Part shown: positions 2,628 through 60,906 of the stretch, piece after piece
How positions within the stretch are numbered: the stretch's first letter is position 1
Layout: the number at the start of each line of letters is the position of its first letter
NCBI RefSeq assembly: GCF_041886205.1
Contig: NZ_CP169029.1
Reading direction: 5' to 3' (one strand)
Source: Escherichia coli
GTDB lineage: Bacteria; Pseudomonadota; Gammaproteobacteria; Enterobacterales; Enterobacteriaceae
Length of the DNA stretch: 64,000 bases
Position numbers and translations under genes: made by a program
Notes under the pieces: generated by a model
The model's database searches: none
What the model was told of the DNA's origin: nothing
The model's input: the letters and a program-made list of their open reading frames with translations, nothing else

Positions 2628-3665
2628 TTAATCATCACCCGCCACGCGGATCACCACTTTGCCGAAGTTTTTACCCTTCAGCAGGCCGATAAACGTCTGT
2701 GGCGCATTCTCTAAACCGTCAGTAATTTCTTCGCGGTAGTGGATTTTATCCTCTTTCACCCATTGCCCCATCTCCCTCTGAAACTCATGGATGCGGTGAC
2801 CATAATCCTGAGCGATAATAAAACCTTGCAAGCGAATACGTTTTTTCAGCACTGTAGCCATCAACAGAGGTAAACGATCCGGACCGGGTGGTAGCTCTGT
2901 AGCGTTATAGCTGCTCACTAATCCGCAGACGGGAATGCGCGCAGATGTATTAAGTAACGGTAGCACCGCATCGAATACCTTACCGCCCACGTTTTCATAA
3001 TAGATATCAATACCTTTTGGGCACGCTTTCGCCAGTTGTTCGGCAAAATCATCCGCGTGGTGATCAAGACAAACATCGAAGCCTAACACCTCGGTAGCAT
3101 GGCGGCATTTTTCCGCGCCACCGGCTACCCCCACCACTCTGCAACCTTTAAGTTTGCCGATTTGCCCCACCGTCGCCCCCACTGGTCCTGTCGCCGCAGC
3201 TACCACCAACGTTTCGCCCTCTTTAGGCTGACCGATATCCAGCAGCCCCATATAAGCGGTAAAGCCTGGCATCCCCAGCACACCCAGCGACCACGATGGA
3301 TTTTGCGGATGATCGCCAAGTTTCACCAGATCATCACCACTGGATATGTCATAGTCCTGCCATCCACTGTAGCCCAGCACCCAGTCGCCAGGCTGATAAT
3401 CAGGATGATTCGACTCCACAACACGGCTCACCGTGCCGCCGACCATCACGCCGCCAATATCAACAGGCGGTGAATAAGATGGCTCATCGCTCATACGTCC
3501 ACGCATATACGGGTCCAAGGACAAATAAACTGTGCGCAGTAACACCTGTCCTTCACCCGCTGTGGCGACATCATCTTCTTCAAGACGGAAATTCTCCGGA
3601 ACCGGTGCGCCATGTGGACGCGAGGCCAGAACCCAACGTCGATTACGCTGCTTTTGTTGCCCCAT
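2628..3665 (-). CDS. curA: NADPH-dependent curcumin/dihydrocurcumin reductase, 345 aa
   Basis: ORF 2628..3770; zinc-independent MDR-family oxidoreductase sequence; start at MGQQKQRNRRW (ATG 3665). Confidence 0.9.
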   Translation of the reverse strand: MGQQKQRNRRWVLASRPHGAPVPENFRLEEDDVATAGEGQVLLRTVYLSLDPYMRGRMSDEPSYSPPVDIGGVMVGGTVSRVVESNHPDYQPGDWVLGYSGWQDYDISSGDDLVKLGDHPQNPSWSLGVLGMPGFTAYMGLLDIGQPKEGETLVVAAATGPVGATVGQIGKLKGCRVVGVAGGAEKCRHATEVLGFDVCLDHHADDFAEQLAKACPKGIDIYYENVGGKVFDAVLPLLNTSARIPVCGLVSSYNATELPPGPDRLPLLMATVLKKRIRLQGFIIAQDYGHRIHEFQREMGQWVKEDKIHYREEITDGLENAPQTFIGLLKGKNFGKVVIRVAGDD

Positions 3666-3844
3666 AATGCTCTCCTGTGCTTTTGGCATGAATCCATCAA
3701 TAGTAGCAGGCTCACGGGATTGGTTTTGTTTGCAGCCGTCACATCCCCTCTGAACACGCAATAATTTCATCGAGGAATCCGTTGCTTCGGGCTGTTATCG
3801 ATAGTATTGATAACATCATCATCATTATTTTATCGAGGCCAGAC

Positions 3845-4363
3845 ATGTCCATCCGTTTTGCCCGCAAAGCCGATTGTGCTGCTATTGCGGAAATTTATAA
3901 CCACGCCGTGTTGTATACGGCGGCTATCTGGAATGACCAAACGGTGGATGCAGATAACCGCATTGCCTGGTTTGAAGCGCGGACTTTAGCTGGTTATCCG
4001 GTGCTGGTGAGCGAAGAAGATGGCGTAGTGACGGGATATGCCTCGTTTGGCGACTGGCGTAGTTTCGATGGTTTTCGCCATACCGTGGAACATTCGGTTT
4101 ATGTCCATCCCGATCATCAGGGCAAAGGTCTGGGGCGTAAATTGTTAAGCCGATTGATTGATGAAGCGCGGGATTGCGGGAAGCATGTCATGGTCGCCGG
4201 GATCGAATCGCAAAATCAGGCCTCGCTGCATCTGCACCAGTCGCTGGGATTTGTCGTCACCGCACAAATGCCGCAGGTGGGCACTAAATTTGGGCGCTGG
4301 CTGGATCTGACATTTATGCAGTTGCAACTCGACGAACGCACTGAACCGGACGCGATTGGATGA
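3845..4363 (+). CDS. mnaT: GNAT N-acyltransferase MnaT (YncA), 172 aa
   Basis: ORF 3782..4363; start MSIRFARKAD at ATG 3845; GNAT motifs. Confidence 0.85.
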   Translation: MSIRFARKADCAAIAEIYNHAVLYTAAIWNDQTVDADNRIAWFEARTLAGYPVLVSEEDGVVTGYASFGDWRSFDGFRHTVEHSVYVHPDHQGKGLGRKLLSRLIDEARDCGKHVMVAGIESQNQASLHLHQSLGFVVTAQMPQVGTKFGRWLDLTFMQLQLDERTEPDAIG

Positions 4364-4809
4364 ATCAGTCGCTCACCCTTGCCTTTTTGATTGCCGCCGG
4401 AATTGGTCTGGTAGTCCAGAACACGCTGATGGTGCGCATCACCCAGACCTCCTCTACCATTCTCATCGCCATGTTGCTGAACTCACTGGTGGGGATTGTG
4501 CTCTTTGTTTCTATTTTATGGTTTAAACAAGGTATGGCGGGGTTTGGCGAACTGGTGTCCAGCGTGCGCTGGTGGACACTTATACCTGGCTTGCTGGGAT
4601 CGTTTTTTGTCTTCGCCAGTATCAGCGGATATCAGAATGTGGGAGCGGCGACAACTATTGCAGTACTGGTCGCCAGCCAGCTGATTGGCGGTCTGGTTCT
4701 GGATATCTTCCGCAGTCATGGCGTACCACTACGGGCGTTGTTCGGCCCAATTTGTGGCGCAATTTTACTTGTGGTTGGCGCCTGGTTGGTGGCCAGACGC
4801 TCATTTTAA
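4360..4809 (+). CDS. ydcZ: Inner-membrane protein YdcZ, 149 aa
   Basis: ORF 4360..4809, hydrophobic; start overlaps mnaT stop (ATGA). Confidence 0.85.
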   Translation: MNQSLTLAFLIAAGIGLVVQNTLMVRITQTSSTILIAMLLNSLVGIVLFVSILWFKQGMAGFGELVSSVRWWTLIPGLLGSFFVFASISGYQNVGAATTIAVLVASQLIGGLVLDIFRSHGVPLRALFGPICGAILLVVGAWLVARRSF

Positions 4810-5043
4810 TCAGAGGATGGTGCCGCCTTTGGTTAACTGTTCGTGGCGCGCTTCCATATCTTCTTTATGCTTGCGACCGTGATGGGCAATAGCGGTGCGC
4901 AAGCGCTGCTGCTGGGTGTAGCGATCTTCCCGACTTAACTCCGCGTCATCGCTCAGGGCGATTAATAATTCGTTCATATGGGCAATGACGCTCTCTTCAA
5001 TCGCGGCATCCACGCGCGCGATGACTTCATCCAGATGCGACAT
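4810..5043 (-). CDS. ydcY: Small protein YdcY, 77 aa
   Basis: ORF 4810..5043; convergent with ydcZ with no gap. Confidence 0.8.
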   Translation of the reverse strand: MSHLDEVIARVDAAIEESVIAHMNELLIALSDDAELSREDRYTQQQRLRTAIAHHGRKHKEDMEARHEQLTKGGTIL

Positions 5044-5128
5044 ACTTTCTCCTTAGCCACTTGTGAAATTTATCGATTCATCCAAATGATATAAGTCTGT
5101 GTGGTGCCGTCAAGCCAGTGAGTAAGAT

Positions 5129-5302
5129 TTAAAACAGTGAAAACAACAGCGCCACCGGGAAACTCATCGGCCATGTTGCCCCCACCAGAAAGGCGCTTAA
5201 GAAACGGATGCGTTTCTTATCGTGAGAAAGAAACCAGGTGATAAGAAATGCGATTGCTGCCATAACCGCATAAAAAACAAGCATGTGTTGATAGAGAGAC
5301 AT
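5129..5302 (-). CDS. ortT: Orphan membrane toxin OrtT (YdcX), 57 aa
   Basis: ORF 5129..5350; internal ATG at 5302 gives 57-aa hydrophobic peptide MSLYQHMLVFYAV... Confidence 0.8.
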   Translation of the reverse strand: MSLYQHMLVFYAVMAAIAFLITWFLSHDKKRIRFLSAFLVGATWPMSFPVALLFSLF

Positions 5303-5496
5303 GTACGGGCGTCCAGCCAGATGAATAAAACGCGCGCAAATATGCGTCATTTTTTGACGTGCATCAAGTTTTTTAACCGGTTTGAGAAAAAAACATCAAA
5401 CAGCAACTTGCCCTTATCCATCTTCAGAATGAGTATGATTGCGGATTTTCTTAACCCGTACTATACACATAGGGGCAATGATAAAAGGTGGCAAAA

Positions 5497-5592
5497 ATGA
5501 ATGTTTCCAGTAGAACTGTAGTACTGATAAATGTCTTTGCTGCTGTTGGTTTGTTTACTCTTATCTCTATGAGATTTGGCTGGTTTATTTGA
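5497..5592 (+). CDS. yncL: Small membrane protein YncL, 31 aa
   Basis: ATG 5497 to TGA 5590-5592 translates to MNVSSRTVVLINVFAAVGLFTLISMRFGWFI; below ORF-track size cutoff. Confidence 0.75.
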   Translation: MNVSSRTVVLINVFAAVGLFTLISMRFGWFI

Positions 5593-5688
5593 TGTAGTGA
5601 TTTTGCACGCAGCACGTACTGTCAGAGAAATCAACTCTCTGACAGTACGCAAGATCATCTCATACTCTTACGATCTGCAATATTATCC

Positions 5689-7113
5689 TTAATGTTTAAC
5701 CATGACGTGGCGGACGACGGTGTAATCCTCCAGCCCATAAAGTGACATATCCTTGCCGTAACCAGAAAGTTTCTGCCCACCGTGCGGCATTTCACTTACC
5801 AGCATGAAATGGGTATTGACCCAGGTACAACCATATTGCAGCCGTGCGCTGACGCGATGCGCCCTGCCCACATCTTTAGTCCATACCGAAGATGCAAGTC
5901 CGTACTGGCTGTCATTCGCCCAGTTCACCACCTGTTCTTCGTTGTCGAAGAGCGTAACACTCACTACTGGACCAAATACCTCTTTTTGCACGATGGCATC
6001 GTCCTGTAATGCGCCAGCCAGCAGCGTCGGCGCATAGTAATAGCCATTACCCTTGCGCTTTTCACCGCCGGTGATCACTTTGATATGCCCTGTCGCTTTC
6101 GCCTCTTCTACCGCCTTGCTGACGCGTTCGAGATGCGCCAGCGAGCTTAAAGGTCCAAGCTCCGTAGACTCGTCATCCGGCGCACCCGATTTTAACGTTG
6201 CCACCGCAGCACCGAGTTTTTCCACCAGCGTATCGTAAATGCCTTTTTGCGCGTAGATCCGACAAGCCGCAGTACAATCCTGTCCGGCATTGTAATAGCC
6301 AAATGTACGTACACCTTCGACCACTGCTTCAATATCCGCATCATCAAAAACAATCACTGGCGCTTTGCCACCAAGTTCCATATGAGTACGCTTAATGGAG
6401 GGCGCGGTATGGCTGATGATGTGCTCGCCGGTGGCGATAGAGCCCGTCAGCGACACCATCCGCACTTTGGGATGACCGGTCAGCGGATCCCCCACCGTTT
6501 TGCCTCTGCCAAACAGTACGTTAATCACGCCTGCCGGGAAGATATCTTTCGCCAGCTCTGCCAACTTCAACGCGGTCAGCGGGGTAATTTCTGATGGTTT
6601 AAGCACTACGCAGTTCCCTGCCGCCAGCGCCGGAGCCAGTTTCCACGCTGCCATCATCAGCGGATAATTCCACGGTGCGATAGAAGCCACGACCCCCAAC
6701 GGATCGCGACGGATCATCGAAGTATGACCTTCAAGATATTCACCTGCCGCCAGACCATTCAGACAGCGCGCCGCACCCGCGAAAAAGCGAAAAACATCGA
6801 CAATCGCCGGGATTTCATCATTGAACGCACTATGCAGCGGTTTGCCACAATTACGGGACTCCAGTTCGGCAAAAACCTGACCATTTTCTTCGATAACATC
6901 AGCCAGTTTCAGCAGACATTCCGCACGCACTTTCGGCGTGGTTTGCCCCCATTCGGCAAATGCTGCATCTGCCGCGCGCACAGCAGCATCGACCTGCTCT
7001 GCGGATGCCTCGGCAATCTCCAGTAAAACGTCCCCCGTTGCCGGATTATAGACAGGCTGTTTTTCCCCTTCGCCGCTAACCAGTTCTCCGTTAATCAGTA
7101 ACTTATGTTGCAT
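5689..7113 (-). CDS. patD: Gamma-aminobutyraldehyde dehydrogenase PatD (YdcW/Prr), 474 aa
   Basis: ORF 5689..7113; aldehyde dehydrogenase family with catalytic Cys/Glu region. Confidence 0.9.
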
Positions 7114-7134: not shown

Positions 7135-7929
7135 TTATTGACCATTGTCGCCTTCGCGGGTTAGCCACCAGGCCCCCAGGATCGGCAAGGTTGTTACCAA
7201 CATAACCAGCAGTGCCACCACGTTAGTTACCGGTACATCACGCGGTCGCCCAAGCTGATTGAGCAACCACAACGGTAACGTTCGTTCATGACCTGCCGTA
7301 AAAGTCGTAACGATGATTTCATCGAACGACAAGGCAAACGCCAGCATTCCTCCTGCCAGTAGCGCCGAACTGAGATTCGGCAACACTACGTAGCGGAAGG
7401 TTTGCCAGCCATTGGCCCCAAGATCCATTGACGCCTCAACCAGACTCCACGAGGTGCGGCGAAAACGGGCGATGACATTGTTAAACACCACCACTACGCA
7501 AAAAGTCGCATGACCGACCACGATGGTGAAAAATCCCGGCTCCAGATTGATGGTTTTAAAAGCGGTTAATAGCGCCAGACCAGTGACAATGCCCGGCAGC
7601 GCAATGGGCAGCAGCAGTAACAGCGAAATGGCGTTTTTGCCGAAAAAGTCTCGTCGCCACAGCGCGGCAGCTGCCAGCGTCCCTAACACCAGCGCCATTA
7701 ATGTCGCCAGCGCCGCCACTTTAAGTGACAGTGTCACGGCATCAAGAATATCACTACGCTGTGCTGCCACGCTAAACCAGCGCAGCGTCAGGCCCTGCGG
7801 TGGAAAACTAAACGCCGCATCTTCAGTGTTAAACGCATAGGCGGCGATTATCAGGATGGGAAAATGTAGGAAAACAACGCCGCCCCAGGCCGCCAGTTTG
7901 AGGAAAAACGGTGCGCGATCAGAGTGCAT
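7135..7929 (-). CDS. ydcV: ABC transporter permease YdcV, 264 aa
   Basis: ORF 7135..7929; hydrophobic permease sequence; last gene of ydcSTUV. Confidence 0.9.
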
Positions 7930-12766: not shown

Positions 12767-13183
<417 letters not shown>

Positions 13184-13228
13184 AATTTCGACTGTCTCTC
13201 GCATGTCATTAACCTTTTTAATTGGCGA

Positions 13229-13405
13229 TTAACTCAAACCGAGTTGTTTCAGAATTGCTTTACGCAATGGTTCTTTAATCTCATCGCTAGGGTGACACGG
13301 CATGACACTGCGCCTCCCGTGAAACCTGAGTTTTAAATGGTTGCTGCCATTCGCTACATCGACGCCCTGAGATTCGAGCCAACGTCTGAACTCGCTTTGT
13401 TTCAC
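13229..13405 (-). CDS. hicA: mRNA-interferase toxin HicA, 58 aa, GTG start
   Basis: Manual translation of minus strand: (V)KQSEFRRWLESQGVDVANGSNHLKLRFHGRRSVMPCHPSDEIKEPLRKAILKQLGLS; directly upstream of hicB. Confidence 0.8.
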   Translation of the reverse strand: MKQSEFRRWLESQGVDVANGSNHLKLRFHGRRSVMPCHPSDEIKEPLRKAILKQLGLS

Positions 13406-16610: not shown

Positions 16611-17783
16611 ATGCGTCTGTTTTCTGTTCCTCCACCCACGCTACTGGCGGGGTTTCTGGCGGTATTAATTGGCTACGCCAGTTCAGCGGCAATAATCTGG
16701 CAAGCAGCGATTGTCGCCGGAGCCACCACTGCGCAAATCTCTGGCTGGATGACGGCGCTGGGGCTGGCAATGGGCGTCAGTACGCTGACTCTGACATTAT
16801 GGTATCGCGTACCTGTTCTCACCGCATGGTCAACGCCTGGCGCGGCTTTGTTGGTCACCGGATTGCAGGGACTAACACTTAACGAAGCCATCGGCGTTTT
16901 TATTGTCACCAACGCGTTAATAGTCCTCTGCGGCATAACGGGACTCTTTGCTCGTCTGATGCGCATTATTCCGCACTCGCTTGCGGCGGCAATGCTTGCC
17001 GGGATTTTATTACGCTTTGGTTTACAGGCGTTTGCCAGTCTGGATGGTCAATTTACGTTGTGTGGCAGTATGTTGCTGGTATGGCTGGCAACCAAGGCCG
17101 TTGCGCCGCGCTATGCGGTAATTGCCGCGATGATTATTGGGATCGTGATCGTCATCGCGCAAGGTGACGTTGTCACAAATGATGTTGTCTTTAAACCCGT
17201 TCTCCCCACTTATATTACCCCTGATTTTTCGTTTGCTCACAGCCTGAGCGTTGCACTCCCCCTTTTTCTGGTGACGATGGCATCGCAAAACGCACCGGGT
17301 ATCGCAGCAATGAAAGCAGCCGGATATTCGGCTCCTGTTTCGCCATTAATTGTATTTACTGGATTGCTGGCACTGGTTTTTTCCCCTTTCGGCGTTTATT
17401 CCGTCGGTATTGCGGCAATCACCGCGGCTATTTGCCAAAGCCCGGAAGCGCATCCGGATAAAGATCAACGTTGGCTGGCAGCTGCCGTTGCAGGCATTTT
17501 TTATTTGATCGCAGGTCTGTTTGGTAGTGCTATTACCGGGATGATGGCTGCCCTGCCCGTAAGTTGGATCCAGATGTTGGCAGGTCTGGCGCTGTTAAGT
17601 ACCATTAGCGGCAGTTTGTATCAGGCGCTGCATAATGAGCGTGAGCGAGACGCGGCGGTGGTGGCATTTCTGGTAACGGCAAGTGGATTGACGCTGGTCG
17701 GGATTGGTTCTGCGTTCTGGGGATTAATTGCCGGAGGCGTTTGTTACGTGGTGTTGAATTTAATCGCTGACAGAAACCGATGA
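16611..17783 (+). CDS. ydcO: BenE-family inner-membrane transporter YdcO
   Basis: ORF 16350..17783; first ATG at 16611 (MRLFSVPPPTLLAGF), multi-pass membrane protein. Confidence 0.8.
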   Translation: MRLFSVPPPTLLAGFLAVLIGYASSAAIIWQAAIVAGATTAQISGWMTALGLAMGVSTLTLTLWYRVPVLTAWSTPGAALLVTGLQGLTLNEAIGVFIVTNALIVLCGITGLFARLMRIIPHSLAAAMLAGILLRFGLQAFASLDGQFTLCGSMLLVWLATKAVAPRYAVIAAMIIGIVIVIAQGDVVTNDVVFKPVLPTYITPDFSFAHSLSVALPLFLVTMASQNAPGIAAMKAAGYSAPVSPLIVFTGLLALVFSPFGVYSVGIAAITAAICQSPEAHPDKDQRWLAAAVAGIFYLIAGLFGSAITGMMAALPVSWIQMLAGLALLSTISGSLYQALHNERERDAAVVAFLVTASGLTLVGIGSAFWGLIAGGVCYVVLNLIADRNR

Positions 17784-17809
17784 TAAAAAGCGCCATCTTA
17801 CGATGGCGC
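17781..17809 (-). terminator. Rho-independent terminator for ydcL
   Basis: Hairpin GCGCCATC-gtaa-GATGGCGC followed by UUUUU on the minus-strand transcript. Confidence 0.6.
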
Positions 17810-17817
17810 GGCTGGAA

Positions 17818-18486
17818 TTACTTCTTGTTAACGTCAAACATGGTGGCATCGGTCGCCATGTCATCAATAACTTGTTTAATATTTTCGAAAGCCATTGGCG
17901 TACTTTCGTTATTCAGGTCTTTACCTTCGCCCTGACGAACGACTTTGATAACCGGTTTATTAGTCGCTGCATCAATCAGCTCACCTTCAAAATAGAGGCG
18001 AGTATCCATGGTACGGTGGCCTGTAGCCATTTGCGTCCCCGCAACCACTAATGCAACAGGAACCACTTCATAGAATTGCAGCCCTTCTTTGCTGGTATCT
18101 ACACCGGTAATGGCCCCACGGAAAATCAGACTACGCGGCCCAGCGGTGGTAACCAGTGGTTTACGCTGCGCAATCGCTTCTTTCATTTCGGTGTTGGTAT
18201 AGCTCAAAATTTTATCCAGAACTGTCTGCCCTACCTGGGTAGAAGGTTTTGGTACCGGATAATAAGTGATTGGGTTCCAGACAATGCTGTCATATTTGCT
18301 TTGATCAAAACTCGGGTCTACCCAACGTAAAACAGGTTTACCTGTTGCTGAGGTTGTTTCTTTTAAATCAGAGTAATTGTTTAAAAAACCAGAATATTTA
18401 TCTGGCTGGGTGATTTTAGAGGCACAACCAGACAGAGCCAACAAGCCGCATAAAGCTGCAACTTTCGCAAATGATGTGGTACGCAT
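17818..18486 (-). CDS. ydcL: Lipoprotein YdcL, 222 aa
   Basis: ORF 17818..18486; lipobox LSGC after signal peptide. Confidence 0.85.
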   Translation of the reverse strand: MRTTSFAKVAALCGLLALSGCASKITQPDKYSGFLNNYSDLKETTSATGKPVLRWVDPSFDQSKYDSIVWNPITYYPVPKPSTQVGQTVLDKILSYTNTEMKEAIAQRKPLVTTAGPRSLIFRGAITGVDTSKEGLQFYEVVPVALVVAGTQMATGHRTMDTRLYFEGELIDAATNKPVIKVVRQGEGKDLNNESTPMAFENIKQVIDDMATDATMFDVNKK

Positions 18487-28540: not shown

Positions 28541-28794
28541 CGACTAAAAGCCTCTTTGCGTCACATTTTTACAACAATTATTGCAGAGAAGATTAATGCT
28601 ATTGGAATGAAGAGAGTAACGAATGGCTAAACCGAATGACGAAAAATTCTGGAAAACAGCACGCAATTTCGTGAAGTGATTATTTCGTCCCTAAGGAAAC
28701 CTCATAGGATGCCTGCGGGTGCCTGAGACTTTCTGTTTTCAGGCTAACCGGGAATCAGAAAGACGAAGGCCCAGACCGATATTTCTATCAACCG

Positions 28795-29012
<218 letters not shown>

Positions 29013-29427: not shown

Positions 29428-29491
29428 CTTCCGATGTAGACCCGTATTCTTCGCCTGTACCACGGGTCGGTTTTAGTACAGGCGTTTTCTT
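29428..29491 (+). ncRNA. rydC: Hfq-dependent sRNA RydC, ~64 nt
   Basis: CTTCCGATGTAGACCCGTATTCTTCGCCTGTACCACGGGTCGGTTTTAGTACAGGCGTTTTCTT matches recalled RydC sequence; TATAAT -10 at 29417..29422; terminator hairpin plus U-run. Confidence 0.8.
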
Positions 29492-60541: not shown

Positions 60542-60570
60542 ATGCTCTGGATAAGGATTATCCAATTCTA

Positions 60571-60679
60571 AAAAAAAGCCCGGACGACTGTTCGGGCTTG
60601 TCTTTTTATATGTTGGAAAATCAGTGGCAATGCAATGGCCCAACAGAAAATAAAATCTGTGACAATAAAGGCATATAAC
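60571..60679 (-). ncRNA. micC: Hfq-dependent sRNA MicC (repressor of ompC), ~109 nt
   Basis: Minus strand GTTATATGCCTTTATTGTCACAGATTTTATTTTCTGTTGGGCC...AAGCCCGAACAGTCGTCCGGGCTTTTTTTT matches recalled MicC; divergent from ompN. Confidence 0.8.
60578..60608. terminator. Bidirectional intrinsic terminator shared by ydbK (+) and micC (-)
   Basis: Hairpin GCCCGGACGACTGTTCGGGC flanked by A-run upstream and T-run downstream. Confidence 0.7.
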
Positions 60680-60906
60680 CCGCGCAGAATAACGTATAGA
60701 AAATTAAAAGTATAATTTTTATTTTGTATGTATTATCTTCGATACATTCACCAGACTTATTATCATTTCAGAAGAATTATTTGATTAAGGTTTTACTTAA
60801 GGCGTAACAAATGATATTTATCGGCTAACTGAACTTCTCCTTTAGGATGTTTTCACTCCCCGAAATGGGGATAAAAGGCAAATAAAATAACTAAAGGATT
60901 TATTCA

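Follow-up and report, generated by a model that had tools for sequence, protein, structure and literature searches.

In Escherichia coli the gap between ydcY and patD holds two very small hydrophobic open reading frames (ORFs) of 57 and 31 aa on opposite strands, which raises the question of whether both are genes and, if so, whether they belong together and what controls them. A preliminary description of a 64,000-nucleotide stretch of E. coli DNA (the whole of which is referred to here as the window) had called them the orphan toxin gene ortT and the membrane peptide gene yncL. The locus very probably consists of two independent, divergent genes for the known small inner-membrane proteins OrtT and YncL. 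Both genes have already been named, annotated and studied experimentally, and the identification is in that respect correct and ordinary. What is added here is the finding that yncL is confined to the Escherichia-Citrobacter-Salmonella group, always beside a far more widespread ortT, and a comparative argument that ortT is the owner of a well-bound FNR site left open in ChIP studies of K-12. The toxicity and membrane depolarisation discussed below are the work of others; gene identity, conservation, synteny and operator conservation come from this analysis, which also leads to proposals for the promoter hexamers, for the sense in which FNR might act and for a hairpin as terminator.

Identification of ortT and yncL as genes

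The names, sizes, strands and neighbours in the preliminary description all agreed with the ORFs, the RefSeq annotation and the family models (Table 1). The two genes are divergent and separated by a spacer of ~194 bp (5303-5496), with 85 bp between ortT and its downstream neighbour ydcY. Strain A35 is 100% identical over window positions 4800-5700 and its RefSeq features, with the product names 'orphan toxin OrtT' and 'stress response membrane protein YncL', map exactly onto the two genes, so that the proposed comparison with annotated ortT and yncL gave equal coordinates. K-12 MG1655 has the same arrangement, with a handful of base differences from the window.

Table 1 Features of the ortT-yncL locus; positions are those of the window.
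Feature	Position	Strand	Description
ydcY (DUF2526)	4810..5043	-	77 codons; downstream neighbour of ortT; PF10735 at 157 bits
ortT (ydcX)	5129..5302	-	57 codons and stop; ATG 5302, stop 5129; ORF and RefSeq feature at the same coordinates
Putative ortT -10, CATATT	5339..5344	-	From consensus and conservation
FNR-type palindrome TTGACGTGCATCAA (TTGATGCACGTCAA on the ortT strand)	5354..5367		TTGAT-N4-ATCAA; 9-of-10 match
Putative yncL promoter	5439..5467	+	-35 TTGCGG 5439-5444; 17-bp spacer; -10 cTATACA 5461-5467
Shine-Dalgarno of yncL, AAGGTGG	5485..5491	+	5 nt before ATG 5497; read from the sequence
yncL	5497..5592	+	31 codons and stop; ATG 5497, stop 5592; ORF and RefSeq feature at the same coordinates
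Perfect 14-bp inverted repeat	5615..5649		Between convergent yncL and patD
patD	5689..7113	-	474 codons; convergent with yncL

The locus is nearly universal in the species. A megablast search with window 4800-5700 as query matched 5415 of 5426 complete E. coli genomes, and in 5405/5426 at least 80% of the region was covered at 95% identity or more. The gene order ydcZ, ydcY, ortT, yncL, patD is annotated throughout a spread sample of 25 E. coli records. Such genes had been expected to be easily missed by automated annotation, but the NCBI pipeline annotates both in every full-length match of the spread sample from 5416 E. coli records. One record, NZ_CP080126.1, matches only from window position 5091 onward and in two places, as would be expected if the ydcY-ortT interval had been rearranged or had received an insertion. 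Outside the locus, the window is without ~1.74 kb at about 17000-18000, where A35 has degenerate IS200/IS605 tnpA and insQ pseudogenes, and ydcV (7135-7929) is an intact gene of 264 codons in the window and is frameshifted in A35.

The size of an ORF proves nothing here, because the ORF listing has 47 frames of 20 aa or more over 2.2 kb of this region, and that abundance is what would speak for ortT and yncL being chance open frames. This reading is refuted by family-model matches, by the pattern of substitution, by conservation and by experiment, and its probability is negligible. The 57-codon translation of ortT (MSLYQHMLVFYAVMAAIAFLITWFLSHDKKRIRFLSAFLVGATWPMSFPVALLFSLF) matches Pfam PF10753 (Toxin_GhoT_OrtT) over model positions 1-55 of 55 with 96.9 bits (cut-off 22.1). 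The 31-codon translation of yncL (MNVSSRTVVLINVFAAVGLFTLISMRFGWFI), an ORF that had been called by hand, matches the NCBIfam equivalog NF000537 over positions 1-30 of 30 with 72.5 bits (cut-off 35), and this match together with the RefSeq annotation bears the call out. The family PF28073:YncL of newer Pfam releases is also listed on YncL orthologues in precomputed annotations.

For a survey across species, an OrtT alignment was scanned against one genome per species (GTDB), which gave 80 Enterobacteriaceae loci. In 80/80, ortT is an intact 57-codon ORF; yncL is present in 27 of the 80 and intact in 27/27, with 31 codons in all except one locus, which has 30. A frame disrupted in close relatives, named beforehand as a result that would speak against the genes, was thus found in none of the 80 ortT or 27 yncL orthologues. 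The mean pairwise pN/pS is 0.166 in the annotated frame, for ortT and for yncL alike, and 1.2-3.6 when the same DNA is read in the two shifted frames (>1.4 in the case of yncL). Variable columns are concentrated at the third codon position, with 9, 6 and 27 of 31 at positions 1, 2 and 3 in yncL and 38, 22 and 53 of 57 in ortT. Judged by these substitution patterns, both genes are under purifying selection. Translation, which the preliminary description had proposed to follow by ribosome profiling or tagged peptides, has experimental support for both proteins, for YncL from top-down mass spectrometry (PMC12529367) and for OrtT from start-codon and point mutants (PMC4344625).

Mechanical ORF calling gives longer frames for both genes, of 73 aa from ATG 5350 for ortT and of 34 aa from GTG 5488 for yncL. 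The upstream start of ortT was rejected, as the 73-aa ORF would run through the conserved promoter and the FNR box described below, and ATG 5350 is also unmatched by GhoT or by the orthologues, which begin MSLYQ. For yncL, ATG 5497 is favoured over the in-frame GTG 5488 because of the position of the Shine-Dalgarno sequence: with a start at GTG 5488 the ribosome-binding site would fall inside the ORF. [quoted passage not shown] Many public OrtT protein entries are over-long (73-97 aa), and one YncL cluster has 82 aa, its stop codon having been lost.

The 31-codon ORF of yncL could also be incidental to a locus that acts mainly as a non-coding small RNA (sRNA). The Salmonella orthologue, STnc1110/STM14_1932, was first catalogued as an sRNA (PMC5437024), the transcript is short with a strong hairpin at its end, and yncL RNA turns up joined to the sRNA RprA in chimeras. 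The chimeras fit an mRNA target equally well; yncL mRNA is a partner of RprA common to RIL-seq and TRIC-seq. Against an sRNA stand the codon-position pattern and the pN/pS values given above, the conserved start codon and the Shine-Dalgarno sequence AAGGTGG, which is conserved in all yncL loci. A translational lacZ fusion is expressed in Salmonella, where it needs sigma-S (PMC5437024), the protein has been seen by mass spectrometry and has a phenotype (PMC12542507), and the locus matches no Rfam family. The sRNA reading is accordingly highly improbable, and yncL is treated below as a protein-coding gene.

The OrtT and YncL proteins

The OrtT of the window is identical to K-12 OrtT (YdcX, b1445), the protein assayed experimentally. 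The K-12 locus has the same neighbours and the same FNR-box 24-mer, and shows no difference of substance, with a few base differences between the window and MG1655 in the spacer. Hydropathy peaks at residues 8-22 and 35-57 are separated by a basic loop, HDKKRIR (H27-R33). The protein shares 63% identity with K-12 GhoT (b4559) over all 57 residues without gaps (E = 8e-27), and the two have in common their length, the two helices, the C-terminal motif TWPMSxPVALLFSLF and the Pfam family. OrtT is an inner-membrane toxin with two helices and, within the GhoT/OrtT family, a paralogue of GhoT.

The two toxins differ in their genetic setting. GhoT belongs to the type V system GhoT/GhoS, and ghoT sits in one operon after the antitoxin gene ghoS, whereas ortT is without a ghoS-like gene nearby. 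A tblastn search for GhoS came up empty both in the window, where the best E was 4, and across the 80 ortT loci, and a type V toxin-antitoxin arrangement was rejected for that reason. Like OrtT, type I toxins, HokB among them, are small hydrophobic inner-membrane peptides that depolarise the membrane; Hok has an antisense RNA antitoxin, and none has been found for ortT (PMC4344625). No Rfam family, STnc1110 included, matched window positions 4300-6300 at E ≤ 1, and hence no known sRNA or antitoxin RNA was found there. A type I arrangement was rejected on this result, on the failure of a terminator-like hairpin at 5330-5347 (+) to persist in Citrobacter or Salmonella, and on the negative outcome of the published test of flanking RNA. 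The neighbours of ortT are ydcY (DUF2526) and yncL. ydcY is not part of the ortT unit: the two are not in an operon (PMC4344625), and a consensus scan places a promoter-like site of its own at 5113-5086. ortT is therefore an orphan toxin gene, without an adjacent antitoxin gene.

Elsewhere in the window, Rfam gathering-score matches were obtained for sok, of the hokB/sokB type I toxin-antitoxin locus (28717-28868, +), for RydC (29428-29491, +) and for MicC (60562-60682, -), and hicA (13229-13405, -) and hicB (12767-13204, -) are also present. The window thus carries three toxin loci of three different types, ortT, hokB/sokB and hicA/hicB.

The description of the two products as possible stress-induced membrane peptides agrees with published work on OrtT (PMC4344625) and YncL (PMC12542507, PMC5437024). 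OrtT is toxic as a protein and causes lysis, membrane damage and lower ATP (PMC4344625; Islam, Benedik and Wood 2015). None of YdcY, GhoS, the intergenic RNA on its flanks and a genomic library counteracted this toxicity; OrtT lowers growth with trimethoprim or sulfamethoxazole, and matters under trimethoprim or stringent stress (PMC4344625). In a strain of Pantoea, plasmid-borne ydcX affects fitness in acidic contaminated groundwater. When made, OrtT very probably inserts into the inner membrane and damages it, with collapse of the proton-motive force and the ATP pool and slower growth.

YncL has one hydrophobic segment, between R6 and R26, and is a single-helix small membrane protein. It is identical to its K-12 counterpart (b4598) at 30/31 residues, the exception being residue 13, which is V in the window (5533-5535), F in MG1655 and V, L or I in other species. 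The K-12 and Salmonella proteins likewise have 31 residues, and their genes have the same position and orientation. YncL is raised in minimal medium, in heat shock and in stationary phase, and its production leads to membrane depolarisation, nucleoid condensation and sensitivity to magainin-2 (PMC12542507). The likeness to YohP, a sigma-S-dependent E. coli protein of ~30 residues with a single helix that is also induced in stationary phase and that, over-produced, also depolarises the membrane and condenses the nucleoid (PMC12542507), is one of function only; the loci differ and no sequence relationship is claimed. In vivo, tagged YncL is a substrate of the intramembrane protease RseP; in vitro the cleavage was not reproducible (PMC10470546). 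Taken together, YncL accumulates in stationary phase, minimal medium and heat shock, causes sublethal depolarisation and nucleoid condensation when produced, and is removed in vivo by RseP. The phenotypes of OrtT and YncL come mostly from plasmid over-production, and the physiological roles of the two proteins at native levels are less certain.

Distribution of the two genes and the case for a partnership

Among the 80 loci, most of which have ortT near patD, yncL was found only in Escherichia, Citrobacter, Salmonella, Intestinirhabdus and one further Enterobacteriaceae isolate. The other 53, two of which have a short upstream flank, gave no yncL by tblastn (E ≤ 1) or when scanned for small hydrophobic ORFs. 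These 53 loci with ortT and without yncL belong to Enterobacter, Kosakonia, Lelliottia, Leclercia, Phytobacter, Pantoea and others. The presence of ydcY and ydcZ after ortT is restricted to Escherichia.

Among 1.84 billion representative proteins, a full HMMER pass returned only 9 YncL-like clusters. The two most divergent clusters that were looked up (70% and 63% identity) are again encoded divergently beside a PF10753 gene, with an aldehyde dehydrogenase gene nearby. By its distribution yncL is a young gene with a narrow range, still in the place where it arose. Where YncL is most divergent, the genomes have additional small genes (82 and 122 aa, no family match) and a 40-aa PF28118 (KPN01023) gene between yncL and the aldehyde dehydrogenase gene; their coordinates are 2668-2916 in locus L085, and 2648-3016 and 3560-3682 in loci L086-L088.

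This distribution bears on the idea that ortT and yncL form a functional module, in which YncL would be a hidden antitoxin or partner of OrtT, or the two would make up a co-regulated membrane-depolarisation island. The arrangement is constant: yncL was found nowhere but next to ortT, in divergent orientation and 189-203 bp away in 27/27 loci, and likewise next to its PF10753 neighbour in the two divergent clusters. The published antitoxin tests, moreover, took in the spacer and no more than the first ~23 bp of yncL (PMC4344625), and both proteins depolarise the membrane (PMC4344625, PMC12542507). Descent alone, however, predicts such synteny among genera this closely related. OrtT does not need YncL, because ortT is intact in the 53 species loci without yncL, and it has the same promoter and FNR box there. 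The genomic-library screen yielded no antitoxin (PMC4344625), YncL is itself mildly toxic and not protective (PMC12542507), and the promoter blocks are separate with different regulators, sigma-S for yncL as opposed to FNR binding and predicted sigma-E and sigma-H for ortT. Given the wide occurrence of ortT in the absence of yncL and the depolarising activity of YncL itself, a partnership is very unlikely. The genes can be called a pair by position; they cannot be so called as a unit, being separate divergent transcription units of which ortT occurs without yncL in most Enterobacteriaceae genera.

The spacer, the FNR box and the hairpin

Aligned between the window and 27 species, the spacer has two conserved blocks and an unconserved middle. 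The block adjoining ortT contains the palindrome TTGACGTGCATCAA followed nine nucleotides later, on the ortT strand, by GCATATT and then TGCGCGCG; the block adjoining yncL contains ATTGCGGAT and CCGTACTATACA. Both ATTGCGGAT and CCGTACTATAC are conserved blocks in the 28 aligned spacers (Escherichia, Citrobacter, Salmonella and Intestinirhabdus).

The GCATATT element is nearly invariant in 80/80 loci, with the form GCATA(T/A/G)T, and always lies 8-9 nt past the FNR box. Based on consensus and conservation, ortT appears to have a sigma-70 promoter with a -35 of TTGATG (5367-5362), a 17-bp spacer, CATATT as the -10 and a predicted start near 5330-5333. No convincing match to sigma-32 (CTTGAAA-N13-15-CCCCATNT) or sigma-E elements was found in the spacer by eye; sigma-E and sigma-H promoters of ortT have been drawn as predicted only (PMC4344625). 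Directly after the putative -10 is the G+C-rich stretch TGCGCGCG (5338-5331, -), present as GCG(C/T)GCG in most genera. G+C-rich discriminators usually accompany negative stringent control. The stretch is thus an awkward fit for a gene that is proposed to be induced when the stringent response sets in. Two terminator-like sites from the consensus scan were rejected, one (5271-5248, -) being inside the ortT coding sequence. The other (5330-5347, +) does not keep its stem in Citrobacter or Salmonella, and what reads as its T-run is, on the ortT strand, the A-tract that separates the FNR box from the -10.

The palindrome has been encountered before in K-12. The 24-mer AAAACTTGATGCACGTCAAAAAAT, which is identical to window 5372-5349 on the minus strand, is the FNR ChIP-chip target 'ydcX' (PMC1802558). 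A second study lists a 'yncL/ydcX' FNR ChIP peak, detected in each of its five data sets, for which it gives the site TTGATGCACGTCAA and co-occupancy by IHF (PMC3688515 Tables S5, S6). No FNR-dependent change of expression was seen for this peak and its target was termed 'indistinguishable' (Myers et al., PMC3688515; Table S9). A match to the box in a single genome is not beyond chance, as the window contains 6 matches with at most one mismatch and 3.2 are expected. Across species, the box is found upstream of ortT in 80/80 loci (38 perfect, 28 matching 9 of 10 positions and 14 matching 8 of 10), and its centre is 54.5-60.5 nt before the ortT ATG throughout, including the 53 loci without yncL. 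As the box is kept at this fixed distance in every locus, also where yncL is absent, and overlaps the putative -35, it can be assigned to ortT.

The upstream half of the box, TTGATG, is at the same time the putative -35, 17 bp from CATATT. If CATATT is the -10, the centre of the box would be near -28.5, and the box would include the -35. This geometry suggests occlusion, and so repression, rather than class II activation. The latter, with the box at -41.5, was rejected: in the 80 loci there is no conserved -10-like hexamer 22 bp downstream of the box. An FNR operator conserved across the Enterobacteriaceae would in this way overlap the core promoter of ortT.

Because no antitoxin accompanies it, ortT must be controlled at the level of expression. 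That FNR represses ortT is a tentative proposal, somewhat less probable than its absence, and the same caution applies to the wider suggestion that an oxygen- and NO-sensing FNR operator might hold ortT in check in place of an antitoxin. The lack of an FNR-dependent expression change in the data of Myers et al. speaks against a simple relation between FNR and ortT. When CFT073 without hmp, nrfA and norVW was grown anaerobically with nitrate, ydcX rose 11.85-fold together with cyoABCD, and the authors of that study considered inactivation of FNR by NO to be one possible cause of part of the response. The rise is consistent with repression of ortT by FNR and is not proof of it. If the proposal is correct, active FNR would shut ortT off anaerobically, and O2 or NO would release it where another sigma factor or an activator is available. 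This gating by FNR would explain the silence of a toxin without an antitoxin, and would assign to ortT a strong FNR ChIP peak that has so far been without an output.

On the yncL side, the putative promoter (Table 1) would place the start of transcription near 5474. A C at -13, as in its -10 element, is typical of sigma-S promoters. The assignment of these hexamers, though provisional, agrees with the sigma-S dependence measured in Salmonella (PMC5437024). The yncL transcript would thus be short and of the sigma-S type, with a conserved hairpin at its end.

The hairpin is formed by the inverted repeat between the convergent yncL and patD, which folds at -33.3 kcal/mol (z = -5.3 compared with shuffles) and is not directly followed by a T-run. 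Every yncL locus in Escherichia, Citrobacter and Salmonella has a strong hairpin in this position, and in Salmonella and Citrobacter the stem is changed on both sides. It is probably the shared end of the yncL and patD transcripts, for which it would act as terminator. In the loop, 3 bases differ from MG1655.
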